Positions 10,497 to 64,000 of a stretch of 64,000 nt of DNA are shown here, in pieces. The DNA comes from Hydrolagus colliei (taxonomy: Eukaryota). Under the pieces are notes generated by a model, which was not told the DNA's origin, searched no databases, and saw only the letters and a program-made list of their open reading frames with translations. The stretch lies in the NCBI GenBank assembly GCA_035084275.1, contig CM068758.1:5704001-5768000 (forward strand), given 5' to 3'. The position numbers and the translations under genes were made by a program. Within the stretch, counting starts at the first letter, position 1. Each line of letters opens with the position of its first letter.

Positions 10497-10730
10497 ATTC
10501 CTGTAGCACATTGGTTAGAGCACACGCCTCACAAGCAACAGGACCCAGGTTTGATTCCTGGGCAAGGCAAAACTTAGGCAAGTTTCCTTACTCCACCTTC
10601 CTCTATTTATGTAGCAGTAAGTATGAAACTGGGTGTAAGTAGATGGGCAGATCGCTTACTGTGGGCAATAATCGCTTAATTAAAAAAAAAGTAATCATAC
10701 TTTGGTCACTCAATCCACAACTGTTTGTGG
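10497..10730 (+). mobile_element. Family A SINE 5' half, ending at a fold-back hairpin
   Basis: tcctgtagcacattggttagagcac..ggtttgattcctgg head; body matches the 43104-43470 copy. Confidence 0.85.
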
Positions 10731-10748
10731 ATTGAGTGACCAAAGTAT
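10697..10748. repeat. Perfect hairpin, 24-bp stem and 4-nt loop
   Basis: atactttggtcactcaatccacaa-ctgt-ttgtggattgagtgaccaaagtat. Confidence 0.95.
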
Positions 10749-34006: not shown

Positions 34007-34249
<243 letters not shown>

Positions 34250-51066: not shown

Positions 51067-51360
<294 letters not shown>

Positions 51361-51817
51361 TCACTTTAGGCTGTGAACCAACAGGCAACTAGGTTGGCTA
51401 TCCAAATTCACTTCACATGAGATTTTTACAACAGCCACATTTCTGGAGTGGAATCAACCAAAAGTAACAGGTTAGTGTCACATTGCACCATTGTGGTCAC
51501 TTTCCAGTCTCGAAATAGTTGATCACAGTCCCACTACCAGAGTGACAATTTAAATGTAATTTTAGGCTAAGATGCAAACAGAGATCGATGCAGAAGGGAT
51601 CCAGCGTTAAATATTGTTCTGCATAAGGATTCCCTGACATTATTCTCAATAGCAAGGAGCAGTTTGCTCAACAGGTTTTCCTGAATACTCCACTTCCAGG
51701 TGCTGCTCTTTAGTTTAAACATAAACATTGACCTGCAGGTAATTGCTAACATGAAGTGACAGTAATCCTACCACGAATGTGTCCAAAGTAAGAACATTGT
51801 GTTTACAATTGAAAACA

Positions 51818-52005
51818 ACGGCTCAGTGGGTAAAAGCACTGCCCAGTAAGGAACACCCATGCAGATCAGGCAAATTCCCAGCTTTGATCCCTGCTCTGTG
51901 CTGATTTAGCTGATCTCAGTGGGAGGGAGGTGTTGAGAAGGGTGTGGAGTGGGGTACTACAATTGACCTCAACACCCTTTGGTTGGAAAGGGGAAAAATC
52001 CTCCC
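51818..52005 (+). mobile_element. AmnSINE2-like 5' half
   Basis: ggctcagtgggtaaaagcactgcc..tgatccctgctctgtgctgatttagctgatctcag..ggggtactacaattgacctcaac. Confidence 0.75.
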
Positions 52006-55000
52006 AATCGGTCAGATGAAACAAACGCAGTTAGATATTACCCTCTCTCACACCACCCCAACACTGTCCAAACATTTCCAATTCTTTATTAAGAACATAC
52101 GGAAAGAAGTTCTGCTTGATAGTTTAACTGGTAGCGCCATTGATTAGGCCATGTATAGAGGTCAAGCAAAGATTGGATCAGGTCCTGTGGTTATACCTTC
52201 TTAACCCTCCCTTCCCTCCTCTGTCCCCATTCTCCTTCTCCCCCTCTCTAAATCCGTGACATAAAAACAAACTCCAGTTTCAAGAGCTTGTTGGATCTAG
52301 ATAAATAATTTAAATTATTTTGTCTTTGGACTCTGGTTAAAAAAATAATCAGCTTTTATCTTGTGCCTCCAGTTTCAGTTAAACCTTTCTCCACATTATA
52401 ATCAATGTTTATGCTGTATGTTTAACTTAACATAGTGACTATTATTTTTGGATATTGTTCTATATTTTGAGAAAAGGGATTTTTAAATAAGATTGTTTTA
52501 CGATATCAGTTTGTCTCCTGTGGTGAAAGCTGATGCAGTTTCCTCTAATCACCCTTGACCCCATGGGTGGAATAACTTGACGTGGTAGAGTTCAGTCAGC
52601 CATGTCTATGCGTATTTCAATCAGTTACATAATTATCTGAAGCAAGGAGTTGCCTCAGCTGACTTGAAAACATCTCCATTGCTCTCATACTCTTTCTTTC
52701 TTCCTTCTCCCTGAATTTACCTCCCTTTCGCTCCTCGATGTGCTGATTCATGGATAACATATCATTCCATGGGGGTCAGCTACCTGGGGCAGAAGGCCAA
52801 GTAGTCAATCTTTGTGTCTGATCTCAGACCGAGTTTCAGCAGGTGACATGCCCATTGCGGGCACAGCATATGAACTCAATACTTGACTTGGGATGCATAG
52901 AGCGTGGGGTGGAATGAGAAAACTGAAGACACGTTTTGTTATGTTTGTTAACAGAAGTTTGTACAGTAAACGGCATGAGTCAGTTGCAATGGCCCAAGGT
53001 TTTTTTCTCTTTCTCCTCTCTCAGCCATCTCCCTCCTCCCACCCTGACACTGCTGGGGTGCGCATGTCGGGTGTATTGCATTTGAGGCAGGTGCAGCACA
53101 TTAAGTTTTGACCTGGCAGCTGGTAAATGCAGTAGCGTCACGTACGGTAGCAGCATGATAAGTTAAGCGGTTGTTAATACAACTAAATTCAATACGACTT
53201 TGAACGCGACTTGGGCAGATGTATGACTTAGTCAATTATGTGATATATGCAGAACAGACTTATGTGAGTTTTACTGTACTTTTCTCTCCACAGCTTTCTC
53301 GTGTTTGCTTTCTCGTGTTTCTCCATATTGTTCAAAAACACATATGCCATTGTTCCTCCCAAACTTCATACAATCCTCCACGCTCTACTACAACTTTCCA
53401 AGGGTTAATACAATAGTATACTAGAAGCTCTCCAGCCTGACAAAATGCAAATCAAATGTGCATACTCTGGGCGGACATAGGGTCATTTCCTGCAGGCTAT
53501 CCTATGGGATAACACTTACACTTTCACTGGCTCTAATCCAGAGCAATACGGTAACAGAGATGCAGTCTCTTTGCTAAACTGTTGATAGTATGTTGGATTG
53601 TGCATCCTCTTTGACCTCCCATTGTATGTGTGTGTATGCTTGCATGTAGGGAAACCTCTCTCACCCAACAGCATTGTGAAAAAGTTTGGAAATTCAAGGA
53701 GGAAAATCTCCTCATTCCTGAAATCACATTTTATTTTCTCTCTTCCTCCCATCTTTCCCACCCCATTGTATCAATGTTTCAGAAAAATAAGGGTAAAATA
53801 ATTTCATATTGTTGGAGTATTAACAAATTAAATGTAAACGGTGCAAGTTTCCCCCTTGGGTGATGAATACAAACTTGTGGTGGTCGGAGTTGCTGCCCCA
53901 GTGAAATCAGGCAATGGTTTGCAACAGCAGCCAAAGGAAAGGTTTTAAATCAGGGGTGTACCAATATCAAACAGTTATGGTGGATAGGTTAGCAGTGGGT
54001 TCAGAACATTCATCTGTTGTGCTGCACATCTGTTCTGCACTGGGTTGAAGCAGTGTATTTGGGAACCCCCTTGGTGTCTCCAAATATACGTCCCATCTGG
54101 AACTGAGTGGGGATTTGTGGTACCTCCCAAAGTGCTGGGAAAACACATCTAGGACCCGAAGGGAAAAGTGATGCCCTTGGCCTGCCTGATGGAGAGGAAT
54201 TCCCATCGCCTGGGAGCACGAATTTGGAGAACTGATGGAAATTGGAGGCAATAGACAACACTATCACAAGCCAAACTCGCTCTGAACACACAAATGCTCC
54301 TCAAATTTGGTGTAGGTTTACTGAGAGCACAAAGTTGTATAATTTGCCAGTCATTCCTGCTTAGGCTCTGCATGACCTAAAGGCAACCAGACGAGCCGCA
54401 CTGAAACTCAATCTATTGGCGTAATCTGTTGAACAGATGTTGGTTTCGTCACTCAATGAAAAAAAACCACATCATCATCATCCCTGACCTACTGGGCATG
54501 TGCAGTTTGGGTCAAAAGAACACGGACAGGCGGGGAGTATTTCAACACAAGGTGTTGGGTCCTCGTTCAAAACTTAATCAGACCCAGATTTCTGTGGGAG
54601 AGACAAAAGACAGGGAGGAGTCAAAATGCACTGCACTCGCACAGAAGGCAGGGACAAAGTCCTTATCAAATGGAACTAATTGGTTTCTGCTGGTTGTATT
54701 TGAAGCTCAGAGGCACAGCCGGGACACTGGGTGGAATCTAAGGTGGCTGGCTACAGGAATGGACGGTTCTAGAAACAGATTCTGGGTGAGGAAGGAGCAT
54801 TTCTTCTCCCAGAGCTCACCATCCTCATAGACCACATTTCATCTTCAACAGACGCTCTCAGTCGTATTTACATGCTTATTCGTGGCCTGATGTGTGGAAA
54901 TTTTCTACCACGTTTTCTACAAACCTTATACTTGCCATCAATTTCATATGAAATTATTTTAAATATTAGACCGTACATCAAATACAAAAGTTCTTACTGT

Positions 55001-56886
55001 ACCTCTCTCCCTCAAAAGAGGTACATTCTGAGCACACACTGAGCAGACATGCAGCAACAACAACTTGGATTTATATAGCGCCCTCCACGCCAGATGGCCT
55101 CTCAGAGCGCAGACAACCTCCAACTGCTATTCTTAAAGGAGCTGTTGGAAAATGCATCATTTTCGTTGATCTGCTCTATGAGGGAACATCTCACTCCACT
55201 CTCCATTCCCAGGCAGGCCCATCAACCAGATAAACCTACACGTATTCACTGGGTCATCCTGACATGCAACAGAAAAGTCATACATGTAAACTCCAACACA
55301 AAGTAAGGCTGTAAGTCAGGTACAATTCTTTGTAACAGCCCATTGTTTTTATAAGCATGGGATAAAATGGCAAACACAAGTCGTATTTTGTGCTCAGACA
55401 TGTCAACAGTGAGAAGATAGACCATAGTGAGGAGAAAGGGACTTCCCTTCAAGTAGAGAGCCTGCAGATCAAGAGCAAACATGTAGGCACTGCCACACAG
55501 TGTTTATGTTGGAGATGCTGGAAAACTTAAAACTTGTGAGAAAGAAAAGCCCATAAGGAAATGGAGATCTTTCCAACGTGCCCTAAATACCGAATGCAAA
55601 CCCTCAGTGAGACAGAGCAAACTGATGGAGTGACAAGCATGGGACATCCAGGGACTACCGCCTCCCACTATTTCTGTGTCAGTCTTTAACTTCCCTGAAG
55701 GAAAAGTTCCAGTGAATGAAAGGAGTGGGATAATCTTTTGGAACCCCTCTTCCAACATGGCTTTAACCAGACTGAAGCAATTCCTTACCCAAAGGCCAGA
55801 GGAATCTATGAATGTGGACAAGCAGCACAACTAATGCTGCCTCCTAACTGACAATCTCACTTCTGGAATGTGGCAATGTTGGGTGATGGTAAGATTGGTC
55901 TTGTTTCTCTCTCCCACCCCCAATCAGAGTCAAAAAACCATTCACACTCAATGCTTAGGCACACAGGTAAACCACCATCACCGCAAGGGTGAGATACCAG
56001 ATGGGAGTAGTGCCCCTTGGAATCATACACCAGTAAAACAAGAGAATTGTTTTTGTCCAAAGAAAAAAATTCTCTAACGCATGATGCATGCAAAAACCCT
56101 CGGCTGATCAAGTGAAACTAAGCACTGTTCCTAATCATCATTTACGGCAGTCATTGGTTTCCCTTTAACAAGCGCCATCAAGTCTTATAACATGATGATC
56201 ATCTGCTAAACTGCACATTTCCTTGGCCCACCAAAACCCTCCACAGCAGCCTTTGCACAGTGAGAAGCAAAGGGCCCCTCTTAAAACTGTCTGCTATTAA
56301 AGCACATTTTATTTGAAGATTTTACAACCTTCCTGTGAAAGCCATTACTTTCTGAAACGAGAATTCATACCGGTTTTGTCAAATACATTTTATAAGGTCT
56401 TTGTGCCTCCTTGGCTCTCGACTTGGCTTCCACACAGTTTCTTTTGCACGCAAGCATATGCCACTAGAGATCTCTGTTCCAAAACAAAGGGCAGTTTCAG
56501 CATTAGTGCAAACTTAAGCAATTCGTTTTACTGCTAAGAAACTCAGCAGCCAAGACCAGGCATTCCCTTCTCCCCCTCTCCAGATTTTCCAGAGAAAAAG
56601 AAATGCCATTCTAAGAAGAAAGTGCACACTGCTAGAGGCATAAGGGATGCTCCAATTGAACATACTTCATCCCTGTGGAACATTTTCTATTGGGCTTGGC
56701 CTCAAACTACAAACAAAATGTACAATGTTGAAGCCAAATCCACCCCAAGACCTGAAGCACGCTCTAGTAACTGGGTAGCTCCTCTTGCACCTATTTCACA
56801 TCCCTGGATAGAATCCAATGACCAATTTTCCTGGCCTCTCTCAACTCGTATATCTCATCACATTTCTCTCTCTTGTTTCTTCATGT

Positions 56887-57072
56887 TATAATAATAATAC
56901 TCATCCTGGCATTTGATAAAGTGCCTTGTCATGTGGTTGAGACGTCTCAAAGCACTTCACAGAATATACTGTAAAGTGAATTGACTGTACATTTTGTGGA
57001 TGTAGCACACAGCAGTGTCCCACAAACAGCCGTGCATTGAGTGACGGATATTTTTATTATTAAGGGATTACT
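56887..57072 (-). mobile_element. Family A SINE 3' half
   Basis: gacgtctcaaagcacttcacagaatatactgtaaagtgaattgactgta..cagcagtgtcccacaaacagccgtg. Confidence 0.85.
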
Positions 57073-57408
57073 ACACAATCCTATATACTCTTCCTCTCCC
57101 TTGTAAAGAAATCTTACAAATCTTACACAATCTCTTCTTCCAAATCATTCTTCCCCCAGGAACCATAAGACTCCCACATCTTCTCCCCATACTTGTTGCC
57201 ATTATAGTGACATCTCATCTCATTCATAATAAAGCAAAAGTGTGTCCTTGAGTAATATGTTTTGAGGTGCTGTCAGCTTTGATCGGGAATAAAACTGAGA
57301 AATCCAAGGTCACCATGTTGTTCCTACATTACTGCCCACTGCTAATACAAAAAACAGCAGATTAGAACTCTGAATAACAGGTGGGACCAGGGAATGCACG
57401 GCTAAAGG

Positions 57409-57463
57409 GGAAGGTGAGGGATGGGAGGGGGGGTGAGGACCCCCCTCCCATCCCTCACCTTCC
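57409..57463. repeat. Perfect hairpin, 24-bp stem and 7-nt loop
   Basis: ggaaggtgagggatgggagggggg-gtgagga-cccccctcccatccctcaccttcc. Confidence 0.95.
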
Positions 57464-58688
57464 AATAGGGGAAGAAAAGGAAGGAAACACTTCATGGTGT
57501 CTATATTGAAATTGTCCTTTGCAATCCTGAACTTTTGCTCTTTCGATCTGCCGCCTTGATGCATCTGAGCGTATTATTCTTGGCCGCTCTCAATCCCATT
57601 AGGAATCTTATCTACCTGTCCCACTCTGATACATCTCTTGATGCTCGACACTGTCAATGCACACTGTGTGAGTTCACACATGGGGAACAATCACTTGAGT
57701 TCAGGTGTTGAAAAGCATCCATGGAAATGTACCCCAGCCAAGGTTGGTTCCTCGGGGTGTGGCAGGGGTAGGCAGAAGAAAAATTGGGCTCAAATGATTC
57801 AATTGTTTCTTTCAATGAAACCCATCAGACAATCGTAAAATCCACATGTTGGACACAGACTATGTTGAAAGTTGTGCAAATAACAAAATACTGGAACATG
57901 TTTGCATTGGTTGCAGTGAGAGTGGTGATTATAGGTGCTGGTGGAGTGTGTGCTGTGTGTACAAGGTATAAAAACCACACACTTAAGTGAAACATCCCTT
58001 CATTATACTTTTCCAACAGGTGCTCCATAACAAGGAGAGACAAATGCTTGCTCAGACACTCAAGAATGGGTATCAATTTACAATTAACAGCAGCACTTAA
58101 GTGAACTTGTCTGAACTCAAAAGAAAACCTTAAACAGCAAAAGGTAAACCATTTTAGTTTAATTTTGGTTTGATCTCTTCTTTCACTGTTACGTTTCTGA
58201 ACATTCCCCTAGTTTCGATACAATTTAATCCCCAAATCAAATCTGGTTTTCCCCTCAACAAAATCCAGCTGCAATCTCTCATCACCGGTTTGGTTGAATA
58301 TCGAAGAAGAGTACAGGAACAAGAAAGTCAATCCATGTCAATGCAGTTCACTTGGACACCTGGGGTTTTGGTGAGGACATAATCTGATTTATTCTTCATC
58401 TTCTTTTATGTATCCTAAACAAGTCCCTCTACTAGTATCCTCATATTCTAACTGATGAGACATATGCTGAGAGGCAACTCGTTCCATCCCTTCCAATTGT
58501 GAGGGCTTCGGAGGATCAAACAAGCACTTTTGCACCACACTGCTCTCGAAGAGGTAACTAACTCTGTTCTCTCAGTCCCAGCTAAGCGATCCCTTTTGCT
58601 CTGTTCCAACATACCTTAACAACTCGTCACAAATGTACATCAATCATGACTGAATTTCAAACCTTTTTTTTATATAAAGTTTCATTGA

Positions 58689-59419
58689 AAGTTTTGCTAT
58701 TTGAAAGCGGTTTCTTGCAACCATAAATAAGCCGCAAGATACATTTTTTCAAGCCATGTATGAAAAGTGGAACCGTTTATGTTTCAATTTAATAAAGCTT
58801 CTGGCAGACATCAATCAAGGAAAACTAATCTTGCTCAACAATCTATGACTTCATGGAGATTGACATGCATCAGAGGCCACATGAAGTGATGGGAGTCTAA
58901 ACACACACGCCTACACACTTCCTCTTAACATCAGTTCACTTTTAGTTTGTGTAGGTATTTGTTTGCATATCCGAAATGCTTCAAATAAATAACTACCGGT
59001 AATCAGATTATTTAAGACCGTCATTTAATAGCAGTGCAGTCATTTGGGTCTGGGTTACATGAGAAAACAATTCTCCTGTTATTTAGAAAACTTAAAAATA
59101 CAGCTATTTATGGTTGCAAGAAACCGCTTTCAAATAGCAAAACTTGACCTCTCTGTTGTGATAAGTCATGTACAAAGCTCCTGTTTCCTTCTGGTATCCT
59201 ACAGGAATATATAATGGGATCAGAAAGAACAACTGCAGTCCACCCAGTTGATCTCAAAGTTAATGAAAAAGTTTTGATACTTTATCTTTCATCTGCAAGC
59301 AAATCGTTTACACCGTTTGTCTTAGAGGAAAAGCGTTAAGTCAGTCACTAGCAGAATTAACCATTGGTACCAGAAGGAAACAGGAGCTTTGTACATGACT
59401 TATCACAACAGAGAGGTCA
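58689..59419. repeat. Two abutting perfect inverted repeats: 58689-58729/59105-59145 (41 bp) and 59145-59196/59368-59419 (52 bp)
   Basis: Base-by-base reverse-complement identity read from the sequence. Confidence 0.95.
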
Positions 59420-61099
59420 CGTTTTAAAGAACTTTCCAAGTGCACTTGAGAGTTACCCTTTGATCCAGAGAAACAGTAGTTTTTCCCTTATCTCCTGCTA
59501 TGCATCTGAAACTGACACGGCTCCTCTTTTTACAACATCCTATAATTCAGTAATACTCTGGTTGTAAATCAGTGAGGGCAGGTGTCGCTGGCAATTACAG
59601 CCTTGACTTCCCATCTGAGTGAGTAGGAGAGGAATCTGACATTTTATCAGTGAAATAATTAGTTTATCATGAGCAATTAGTTCCGACAACTCCAAGCCCC
59701 TGAGGCCTCTAAACACTCAAGTGCTAGTGAAACCTTTATGAGCCGACCACGTCGCTGTCCAGCTCACTAGAGCTGATGCTATCATAGGCTAGATTCCGTA
59801 GCTCCAGATTAAACACTGGCAACATCCACACATGGTGTTTACAGCTTCAGAGTGTATTCACTCCACTTCCTCCTAATCTACCTCCTCAACACACCTCTTC
59901 CAGACCCCTCTCACACACAGCTCAGGAGTGGGCACTCATGGGTCAGGTGTTTTGGAAACAAGTCATTTGGGGCCATCAAATCTCCTCGATATACAACAGC
60001 TGCCCTTGTCTTACAAATATACGTTAAGCCTATCCATCCTTAATTGTGGCAGAACAAAGCTCAAGTCCTTGTAGTGCCAATCTTTCCTCTCTTCTATCTG
60101 GATTTTCAGATGAAAGCACACAACAGGTGGCTGCAATAAACAGCAAGTTCCATTATTATTGCAAGAGGATGGGATGGACAGTGTCAATGCCAAACTAACT
60201 TTACTGGCACACATTTCACTTTGGCGGAATGCTCACCCACGTCCAAAAGACACATCGCTTCAGTCACAGCATAGCTAATCAGGATTCACATAGTCACCCA
60301 ACCTTAGCAGCTGTCTTTAACCCATTTTGAGGTGCAGTTGGATCCACGGACAACAAGCTGATTAAAACCAGCTGACTGGGAACTGGGGGTAAATTTAACC
60401 TTCCGAAGCCACTGTCCTCTTGGACAGATAAATCACCACTTGGTCATCACTTCCTTGACATGCATGTTATCTTTGCTTAATATTAACCATTTGAGAAAAT
60501 GAACACAAGTGAAACAAACAAAATTTATTTCAAGAGTAAACTTTTGTTTTCAAATTTACTTTAAATCACTATGTTGAAATCAAGGCTAATCACATAATTG
60601 CTTATTTAACCCCATTAAATCTCAGGGCATTCTGGTGGTCTTGTACCAAGTACTGCTGTGGCTTATTCTAGAGTAGTGCAATTAGTTCCAGTGTCAGTAT
60701 TAGTGAGAACATTCTGACATTGGAGAGGCTACAACAATAGGCAACTGAATGATTTATGGATCAATGCACGTGAGCTGTGAAGAAATAATGCAGGAACTAT
60801 AAGATAACCTTATTAAGATTGTAATTTAGTGCTAGAAAGATTTCAAAACTTTAAAGGTGAAAACAAATGAGTTAAACTATTCTAGATGTAACAAACACAA
60901 AGATCAGCACTAAAGTGTTGGCTGATGATGCTCCACAGGCTTTTTAACCCATCAAACCTGCAACTCTTGAAATTTATAACCACATTTCTCCACTCTTTCT
61001 ATATCCTGAATACTGTATGTCATGCTCTCCCTCCCTTACAAGCATTTTCAATTGATATACATCTGATTTTCTTTGATAGAAAACTGACAAATGAAGAAC

Positions 61100-61308
61100 A
61101 TAATAACAGTAATCCTTTCATGTGATATAGCGCTTTTCACATCTTCTAGGCGTCTCAAAGTGCTTTACAGAATATACTGTATAGTGAATTGACTGTACAC
61201 ATGTGGGCGAAATGCAACAGCCAATTGCGCACAGGTGGGTCCAACATACAGTCGTGGATTGAAAATGACCAATTTATTATTGCTTTTTTTTCTTGAGGGA
61301 TTATTATC
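61100..61308 (-). mobile_element. Family A SINE 3' half
   Basis: Same family motifs through cttgagggattattat. Confidence 0.85.
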
Positions 61309-63788
61309 AGACATGAGTGGATTTTACAAGGTTCAGGTTCAACTATGATTCTAGCCAGTACCTCATTCCTAGGATTCATTACATAAACTAACACCCAAAT
61401 GCCTCAATTAAATTTCAACCTTTAATATGTTGCCCGGATCCATTAATCGGAGCACACCATCTCTATTCTACAGTCACATGGAAATCTTAGTGTCGTGCTG
61501 ACTAACAGAAACTTCAGATAGACAAGAACGTGGCAACAGCTGACCCATAAAATGAGCACTCCAACTAGACGTAGGCGAGATTGCTTCACTTTAGCTGCAT
61601 GTCAAAAGACATAGATACAGAAAACACGTTTGCCAGATCTTGCATATCTATTCCTTGCAGCAATCTGCCTGGGTTTGCATGTTTTTCCCCTCTCATAATG
61701 GTCTTTTCACATTCCTCAATGTTGTAATTATCTCAAAGTGTAGGTGGATTTTTTCTCCCCCTGTGTGACATCTTTATAACAACCATCTGATAAGCTAAGG
61801 TTACGCACCTGCACAATCATCTCCAGAACAAACACCATTTAGGAAGGATATCTGTCAGTATGCCATTCAAATTATCACTTCTAACAAACGACTCTTGCTC
61901 ACAGTCACTAGGTTTGTTATTTTAAGCAGCTTGTGCAGCCTGTCTCTTCGTTGCGAGCTAGAAGCCAAAGGATTTTCCTGAGTTCTCCTTTACTGCCAAG
62001 ACTGACTGGCTTTAACACGTCGCTGATGCTTCAGATAGTCAGATTAAAATCTTCACCACTATATATGTGGTCTCTGGCACAGTGAAAAACAAGTGGGATT
62101 TGTTCCCACATGCAGCAGCTAAAGACGTCTACCAAATATCCGACACATCTGAGAAGATTGTTTTATCCATCTGAGGGAAGAATGCAATAAAACCAGACAC
62201 AGAAACAGACTCAGGAAAAACATTCGCAGCCTCAAGATGGGTGTGGGGTGTTTGCAGGAATGTGTAGTCTGTAACTTTAAAAGAGATTTAAAAATAAAAG
62301 CGTGTCCTTGACCATAGTTAGTTAGCACTTGTCAAACAGGTGCTTCCAAACTACAGTAAATTCAACTTCAACCTAGATCAAGATTGTGTTATGGCGAATG
62401 AAACAAGGTACTTAATTGTTACTAAACTGGAAACCTTCACTCTGTTTGGGATGTCCTCCAGATGTGAAAGGCACTATATAAATGCAATTTGTTGTTGCTG
62501 TTGAGAAAAATTACTCAGCGTATCTCTGCCCAGGGCAACAATCACCAGGACAGTGATGCCCGGCTGCTCTCAGAGAGACCGCACCACAGGATGCAGAGCC
62601 CATTGGTTCAGTGAACACTTCTGGCTTTGGACAGTGAGGATGTCGGGAGGAGGAAGAGTGTGAAATGGTATATTAAGAGCTTGGGAGGAACAAGAGGAAT
62701 GCTACTAACAGGCACTTTCCCGACAGGTAACTAAAACAAAATGCGTTTCCCTCTTTCTTTAAATATATAACAGACTCCAGCAACACCACACCTCTGTATG
62801 AAAAACAAGTTTTTTTAAAAAACTTTCTGCTTGCCCATCTCTTCCAGTCATTGGAGAAGGTTGTGTAACTGACCGGACAAGTTATAAACCAACCCAAATA
62901 CCTTTTGCTTTCCCAATGTCAAAGGTGCCAACCAATCCTCCAGAGTCCTAGCACTGAAATACTTTTCCTTTCAAAAGGAATTAATGATTATTTTATCGTG
63001 GGAGTAATATTGGCATTGACTCTAGCCTCCCATTGCTCAATATTATCAAGTTGCCTTCTCCAGGTTTCTAAATTGCCCCATTTTCACGTCCATTCACTTG
63101 CTCAATAGTGGCCCACGTTGTTTTCTGATTGTGAAACTACTCCAGGGTATGTGAGCAAAGAATATTATCCAGTTAAAAATATGAGAGAAGACTCGGTCAG
63201 TCAAATAAATAGTGACATCACACTGGGATTATTAAAAGCCTGTAGGAGAAGAGGACAAAGAGGAGATCCAGTTTTGAGAATGAGCCAAAAGTAGGAGGCA
63301 ATGCTAGATTTCAACACAATGAGAAAGAGATGCTGCGTCTAATATTTGGAGATTGGGACAAACAAAGAAAGTTTTGGAAGACTAATGGCCACACTGATAA
63401 GTCAGTTGTTATGAAATTCAGAGAGGGAAAGCAATCATTGAGAGATGAGGAACGGATCACTCTTTTCTGTAACCTGTCTGTAAGTGCAGAGCTCGAAAAA
63501 TCTTGCTAGGCTCAACTCTAAGATGGACTTTGCTTTTATAGAGTGTTGAGAGCCGTGCAAGAGGAAAGGCAGAAATAAGCAAACTAGTCTCTTGTGATTC
63601 TGTTTTAGCAGCACCGTTGGTAGACTGTTGTTTGAGATCAAAGGATAGGGAACTTAGTAACTGTGATCTGAAGATAATAAAGTCATAATACTCAAGGTCA
63701 GAAAAGGGACAAGGCTGGAACCTGTAGGATTTTAGAACCTGTAGGATTGTTACTGAATAAATTGTAACACAAAGTTACTTATTACCTA

Positions 63789-64000
63789 ATGGCCTTGCCC
63801 CCTCCTACCTCCGACCTGCTGACTCCCTACCAACCTGCCCAGTCCCTCCATTCAGCGGGCTCCGGTCTGCTCCATGTCTCCCACCTGACCTGCCCTACCA
63901 TCAGTGGCTGGGCTCTGCCCTCATACTCTGGAACTCATCCCATAGTCCCACCACCTGGCTTCCTCCCTTAAGGCCGGTCTCAAGACACTCCTTTTTGACC
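63789..64000 (+). mobile_element. L2 3' fragment running off the window end
   Basis: ccttgccccctcctacctccgacctgctgactccctaccaacctgcc nearly identical to 28943-28990. Confidence 0.85.

Follow-up and report, generated by a model that had tools for sequence, protein, structure and literature searches.

How an intron comes to hold 92 consecutive bases that can be read entirely as inverted copies of its own two flanks is the question raised by a locus in a netrin-1-like gene. The locus lies in the window, by which the whole analysed stretch of 64 kb is meant (G000:C25:5704001-5768000, in a 1.0-Gb genome). Positions 59105-59145 are the exact reverse complement of 58689-58729 (41/41 bases), with 375 nt separating the arms, and positions 59145-59196 are the exact reverse complement of 59368-59419 (52/52 bases), with 171 nt between them. 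Both perfect matches had been claimed in an initial annotation of this DNA and are confirmed at these coordinates. Two local donors located on opposite sides explain 92/92 bases of this core, which has three junctions. The window contains 73 exact inverted repeats with a length of 14 nt or more, and these two pairs of arms are longer than all others, which do not exceed 25 nt. The features of the locus are compiled in the table.

Table. Features of the 92-base core, its flanks, and the host intron (positions in the window)
Feature	Position	Strand	Evidence or remark
Left arm A, presumed donor, 41 nt	58689..58729	+	Exact reverse complement of 59105-59145
Left spacer Y, 375 nt, unique sequence	58730..59104		No second match in G000 or in 1.46 Mb of sampled genome
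Possible imperfect primer, left copy	59099..59105	+	5/7 bases shared with 58730-58736 in reverse complement, offset from the arm by one base; putative primer role
Inverted copy of A, left half of the core	59105..59145	-	Joined to the left spacer in X8 and X7 contigs
Inner junction, 7-nt microhomology with one mismatch, common to both donors	59139..59145	+	6/7
Inverted copy of the right donor, right half of the core, 52 nt	59145..59196	-	Missing upstream of 59210 in two organism D samples
13 nt between the core and the start of the outgroup alignment	59197..59209		Alignment of D contigs begins at 59210
Right spacer Z, collinear with the outgroup, not inverted	59210..59367		Two D contigs, both + strand
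Right donor	59368..59425	+	59368-59419 exact; 59420-59425 supplies the microhomology; spanned by a single contig in 3/3 D runs
Host intron of the netrin-1-like gene, ~23.0 kb	51261..64000, on to L007:273	-	Exon translations and splice sites; laminin EGF domains; netrin-1 match

The two halves of the core had been described as sharing a single T at their junction, and this overlap turned out to be larger. With one mismatch allowed, the right-hand repeat extends to 59139-59196/59368-59425 (58 nt), and both donors are identical at 6/7 positions over 59139-59145, the mismatched base in the core being that of the left donor. For this 7-mer, an overlap of this quality occurs at 38 of 11,988 fixed local positions (0.003), and under a looser null in 0.9% (0.009) of 200,000 random local pairs. 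The microhomology at the inner junction (6/7) is above chance (P 0.003-0.009). At the outer junctions, microhomology is weak in the junction printout or unreadable without the ancestral allele. A direct repeat bracketing the core was listed neither at a length of at least 16 nt nor in the junction printout, and a local source for 59197-59209 was not found, the longest candidate being an 8-nt match at 58312 that lies within chance.

The arms might belong to two adjacent MITEs with terminal inverted repeats, or the entire arrangement might be an artefact of the assembly; both readings are barely credible. The arms were expected to occur at a single locus, and three DNA searches of the G000 assembly matched them only here, although this search has limited sensitivity because it skips very common words and is hence no proof of rarity. 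Within that limit, it returned no dispersed copies sharing terminal repeats. A comparison of 58200-60000 with 864 kb and then with 1.46 Mb of sampled genome gave no distant match (BLAST, word size 7-8; word size 8 for the 1.46 Mb). In run X5, the arms are represented by separate contigs of 41 and 52 nt with a depth of 100 and 86 compared with 48-49 in the flanks, and this is about twofold and not many-fold, as two copies would give. In the outgroup, organism D, no empty site lacking a whole unit is seen; D keeps the right spacer together with the right arm and is without the left-hand copy only. A transposon origin is thus unlikely, given the single-locus matches, the lack of a distant match, and the approximately twofold arm depth. 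Runs from three studies (X5, X7, and X8) contain the core, which is therefore genuine and no assembly artefact.

For the comparison with other samples, 8 of the 16 runs were aligned with the locus; X11 and X16, with a small share, and X1-X4, X9, and X10 were left out. The core is carried by three of these eight runs, which come from three studies and at least two organisms. X5, which represents a second sample and study of organism A, differs from the locus by 13 letters over ~1,800 nt (about 0.7%). Its contigs comprise the collapsed arms, a 59-nt junction contig, and flanks reaching 30 nt into the arms; this layout is the pattern of a 31-mer graph, and no single X5 contig meets the 31-letter bridging rule. 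In X8, which represents organism B and differs by 30 letters in 1,617 nt (1.9%), one contig (58894-59196) bridges the left and the inner junction. X7, which belongs to a third study and has a depth of 3.4, contains one contig (58982-59236) that bridges all three junctions with 2 differing letters and no gap. In X6, X12, and X14, the junctions are not covered, and such gaps prove nothing.

Organism D is represented at the right-hand side by X13 and X15, both from one study, which differ from the locus at 46 of 709 and 37 of 588 nt (6.3-6.5%) and are thus ~93% identical. The respective contigs, 59210-59918 and 59210-59797, are both on the plus strand and contain right spacer and donor collinear in one piece. 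Leftward of 59210, they continue with 145 and 76 bases that are unrelated to the locus. D contigs are absent over 58401-59209 in all three D runs, so that the comparison with this organism informs the right side only. A 30-base piece of D's unmatched flank matched neither the window (with up to 3 mismatches) nor G000; it is therefore no local segment that has moved, and no young repeat that is common in G000. Metagenome contigs were scanned with a 29-base pattern taken from the right spacer and gave no match.

Several further differences between the samples were noted around the core. Organism A is without a segment at 58404-58439 that is present in B, C, D, and the third-study samples; X8 has loose ends of 255 nt or more there, and a D contig has ~630 unmatched nt. 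This difference is likely a deletion in A, located 250 nt upstream of arm A, and would then be younger than the core. In the left spacer, 10 bases (58903-58912) are missing from the organism A haplotype of X5. A mismatch in the right arm of B, which the ends of X8 contigs at 59196 and 59397 had seemed to indicate, was dropped since a missing link to the downstream flank fits these ends equally well.

The comparison with D gives a direction to the right half of the core. It had been predicted that an outgroup would have the donors and lack the copy, and this holds for the right arm in two D samples from one study, the left side lying outside the cover of D. The right spacer of D is collinear with the locus and not inverted, so that an inversion of the spacer in place of an insertion of the core, named earlier as the observation that would speak against a templated insertion, does not apply on the right side. 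For the right arm, the D contigs show that 59368-59419 is the original and 59145-59196 the copy. The prediction of a clean allele that lacks just 59105-59196 did not hold: a joint skipping the core occurs in none of the eight runs, the only joint listed being at 57753-57871 in D, and the outgroup holds other sequence at the site. As at least 145 bases in D are unrelated to the locus, the event was probably a deletion plus an insertion. The unmatched bases suggest an ancestral sequence that was lost at the site, and they could also be D's own change.

The absence of mismatches in the arms had been taken as a sign of a recent event. The core is, however, present in organism B at about 1.9% divergence as well as in the third-study sample, and the event is therefore older than the split of A and B and not fresh. 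Zero mismatches in 92 nt have a probability of 0.16-0.23 at 1.6-2% arm divergence and of 0.002 at 6.5%, and the arm divergence compatible with this observation has a 95% bound of 3.2%. These values place the event probably near the A/B split. Most likely, the core postdates the split from D.

To estimate how common such structures are in this genome, 1.464 Mb of G000 from six stretches of three contigs, including the window, were scanned for inverted repeats with unique 16-mers whose arms have a length of 25 nt or more and an identity of 90% or more. This resulted in 14 inverted repeats, 10 of which have spacers of at least 30 nt, and two of these are the pair described here. The other eight comprise four without a distant match in the sample (arms 25-99 nt, spacers 50-463 nt), three dispersed repeats, and one local repeat cluster. 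When 31 repeats were tested for abutment with donors on opposite sides, two pairs were obtained, namely the present one and a weak one, C25:5585106-5586761, with arms of 24 and 20 nt (92-95%). The latter was rejected because it matches dispersed repeats. Single local inverted copies are ordinary in this genome and the double is uncommon; a rate for doubles cannot be derived since the window had been chosen for its double.

Some of the other inverted repeats are worth recording. Two single local inverted copies, C3:75108911-75109571 and C3:40095169-40095722, have arms of 99 nt (96%) and 55 nt (95%), spacers of 463 and 444 nt, and no distant match in the 1.46-Mb sample; they represent either similar scars of greater age or MITEs with a low copy number. 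An exact 120-nt inverted repeat with a 337-nt spacer at G000:C15:6036095-6036671 lies partly in a multicopy element. Within the window, a perfect 24-nt hairpin with a 7-nt loop and one purine-rich arm at 57409-57463 is probably a short-range fold-back, and a second perfect 24-nt hairpin at 10697-10748, with a 4-nt loop, lies partly within a low-copy repeat.

These background data also bear on the question of whether the two halves of the core arose separately, by two independent single template switches at the same spot and at different times. Single local inverted copies are known in this genome (4 in 1.46 Mb), and a second break might be favored where an inverted repeat is already present. 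At that density, however, a base-exact abutment is very unlikely; in addition, both arms are free of mismatches in G000, and X5, X7, and X8 show both halves. Two separate events are therefore quite improbable. The core likely originated from one microhomology-driven germline repair or replication event that used two local templates and took place in an ancestor of A and B. The earlier interpretation as a locally templated insertion made of inverted copies of both flanks is supported by the single-locus arms, the independent runs, and the outgroup comparison of the right arm. Its further specification as a double fold-back gives the simplest geometry, but the sequence cannot separate this route from serial template switching.

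Among the routes of a single event, a two-ended double fold-back is tentatively placed first because it is the only one using just the strands that are left after resection. A double-strand break would be resected on both sides. The left 3' tail would fold back over at least 375 nt onto its own strand and copy 41 nt, and the right 3' tail would fold back over at least 171 nt and copy 52-58 nt. The new tips would then unwind and anneal via the 7-nt overlap, and the gaps would be filled. The ancestral sequence at the break, ~145 nt or more judging from D, would probably be lost in the process. Two considerations favor this route: on its own side of the junction, each half of the core is oriented outward, the orientation expected of an intrastrand fold-back, and the strand that a single left-hand tail needs for reaching the right donor would be lost to resection. 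A symmetric double snap-back with long loops, in which both ends fold over hundreds of bases, are extended by 40-60 nt, and are joined tip to tip, is thus a candidate process that is put forward with reserve.

An identical product would be formed by one nascent strand at a stalled or broken fork that switches its template three times, first to the opposite strand upstream, then to a site ~730 nt downstream, and then back, as in FoSTeS/MMBIR. In a variant of this route, the right donor and A would be copied in one pass from a circle or from the junction of a tandem duplication; this variant is prompted by the fact that the core on the minus strand reads exactly as the right donor followed by arm A. 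Microhomology with one mismatch at inner switches, as observed here, is described in the text of PMC8421209 for microhomology-mediated templated insertions of the MMBIR type (MMB-TI). Serial switching would, however, require that the template be single-stranded on both sides of the switch point within ~730 nt, and for the variant no trace of a tandem duplication is listed. Counted as a subset of the single-event reading, serial switching including its variant is somewhat unlikely and ranks behind the double fold-back.

A third route, also counted as part of the single-event reading, treats the left half as the end of an inversion. Synthesis would pass through A and then switch strand, the 375-nt spacer and A would be copied backwards (416 nt, four-point type 3-1-2-4), and a switch to the right donor and a return would follow. 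The number of switches is the same, the outgroup has no contigs over the left spacer, and according to the text of PMC5453318 the types 3-1-2-4/1-3-4-2 make up 23% of human-chimp events, compared with 31% for 3-2-1-4/1-4-3-2. An orientation marker was sought in the left spacer and was not found, and no old repeat extends across the boundary of A and spacer that would mark one orientation or the other. Against this route stand the required reverse tract of 416 nt and the right spacer, which is demonstrably not inverted, and it is considered unlikely.

Polymerase theta-mediated end joining or template switching had been proposed. The involvement of polymerase theta is doubtful: tracts of 41 and 52 nt and donor distances of 375 and 171 nt are both large compared with published typical values. 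In mouse cells, the templates of theta-dependent insertions are reported in the text of PMC7165422 to lie typically within 30 bp, with primary tracts rarely exceeding 10 bp, and in flies, sequence at distances of up to 30 bp is stated to influence snap-back SD-MMEJ (PMC5728401, text). The core falls outside both ranges, which represent typical values and not absolute limits. Fold-back insertions in yeast, which range from 2 to about 150 bp, need polymerase delta (PMC11724301, text), and loss of polymerase theta is described in the accessible text of PMC13065848 as resulting in fewer complex insertions, the remainder being longer. Tract length and reach fit polymerase delta or an MMBIR-type step at least as well as theta alone, judging from these comparisons, and theta could have made the final join.

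The relation of the core to known systems is one of partial agreement in each case. In the theta-dependent TINS and snap-back SD-MMEJ described in the text of PMC7165422, PMC5728401, and PMC10923293, a deletion is accompanied by inserted inverse repeats of the flanks that arise by hairpin priming and are joined via newly made microhomology, with several rounds for longer insertions. Inverse repeats of the flanks are likewise present in the core, and the other features would be shared by the proposed double fold-back with its probable deletion. They differ in that the templates of the core are hundreds of bases off. In the polymerase delta-dependent fold-back of yeast (PMC11724301, text), a resected end folds on imperfect inverted microhomology, is extended, unwound, and joined, which resembles the steps proposed here. 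Unlike the proposed route, however, the yeast reaction concerns one end only and has a 41-nt loop, and most of its tracts are below 14 bp. Its two-piece cases derive from a distant locus and have opposite orientations; in these complex insertions, the median microhomology between two inverted pieces is 6 bp. The fold-back loops documented in the text of these sources, 41 nt in yeast (PMC11724301) and ~30 bp in flies (PMC5728401), are far smaller than the loops required here.

In the four-point template switch described in the text of PMC5453318, types 3-2-1-4 and 1-4-3-2 are mirror images that form local inverted repeats, and each half of the core alone equals one of them; that model has one switch-and-return, whereas the core needs three junctions. 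A further likeness is to the MMB-TI of human genomes, which is likewise a germline insertion of at least 25 bp with several nearby templates; microhomology or one-mismatch microhomeology occurs at its junctions and, in the core, at the inner junction. According to the text of PMC8421209, multi-template insertions account for 33/103 and 26/99 curated events in two individuals (about 30%), and microhomology or one-mismatch microhomeology is found at most of their junctions. The published search had a reach of ~100 bp, in contrast to the distances of 375 and 171 nt of the core donors. The exact two-sided geometry was not found in the running text of the literature searched, and no claim is made that it is unpublished; the supplementary figures of PMC8421209 may contain the same geometry. 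PMC8078821 added little to the comparison in the text that was available. The core is best read as a complex locally templated insertion, a class that is already known, including from human genomes.

The intron harboring the core belongs to netrin-1 or a close paralogue. Exons of the minus strand, at 51072-51260 and near 34080-34225, code for laminin EGF domains. The first coding exon, which is large, is located ~10 kb outside the window (L007:274-1294, minus strand); among solved structures, its best match is netrin-1 (E 2.6e-173). Within the matched part, this exon encodes ~9 residues more than the solved netrin-1 chains (query 14-339 compared with chain 3-319). The distance from the core to the 3' splice site is 7.4 kb, and that to the 5' splice site about 15 kb.

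It had been suggested that two stacked double-stranded stems would form in the netrin pre-mRNA. Folding of the transcribed (minus) strand predicts two abutting helices, at -274.1 kcal/mol compared with -177.0 +/- 7.3 kcal/mol for 20 shuffles. These stems follow from the repeats themselves, as any inverted repeat folds in this way. If the double stem were retained for work in the pre-mRNA, for example as an ADAR substrate or as a splicing or processing element, the side-by-side helices of the predicted fold and the intact arms in two haplotypes of organism A would be in line with it. Against such a role, the fold is trivial, neither stem encloses an exon, the nearest splice site is 7.4 kb off, and the copy is absent in D. 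No Rfam match was found at the feature, all 32 sub-threshold matches being located on the hairpin 57402-57469. In organism B, a C>T change at 58708, a CpG site in arm A, has no matching change listed at its partner 59126, and this single uncompensated change is as neutral decay would give. A function of the predicted stems is very improbable: both can fold, and there is no sign of function. The core is probably a scar that is neutral and harmless. The matches of the hairpin 57402-57469 itself are nearly all to microRNA models, and none is near the gathering score.

The core is a tidy example of a known mutation class, located deep in an intron and with no sign of function. If the double snap-back with long loops is true, it reaches about 10 times as far as typical polymerase theta insertions, and the locus, being conserved between species with sufficient clarity, would serve as a search template for two-ended repair in vertebrate germlines. 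A recurrence of the two-ended route throughout the genome, which one locus cannot show, would mean that resected germline ends can self-prime hundreds of bases back on both sides of a break and would be of modest interest to DNA-repair specialists. For the lineage itself, the locus illustrates that a perfect inverted repeat need not be young, and the core, which is present in A and B and absent in D, is usable as a clade marker.
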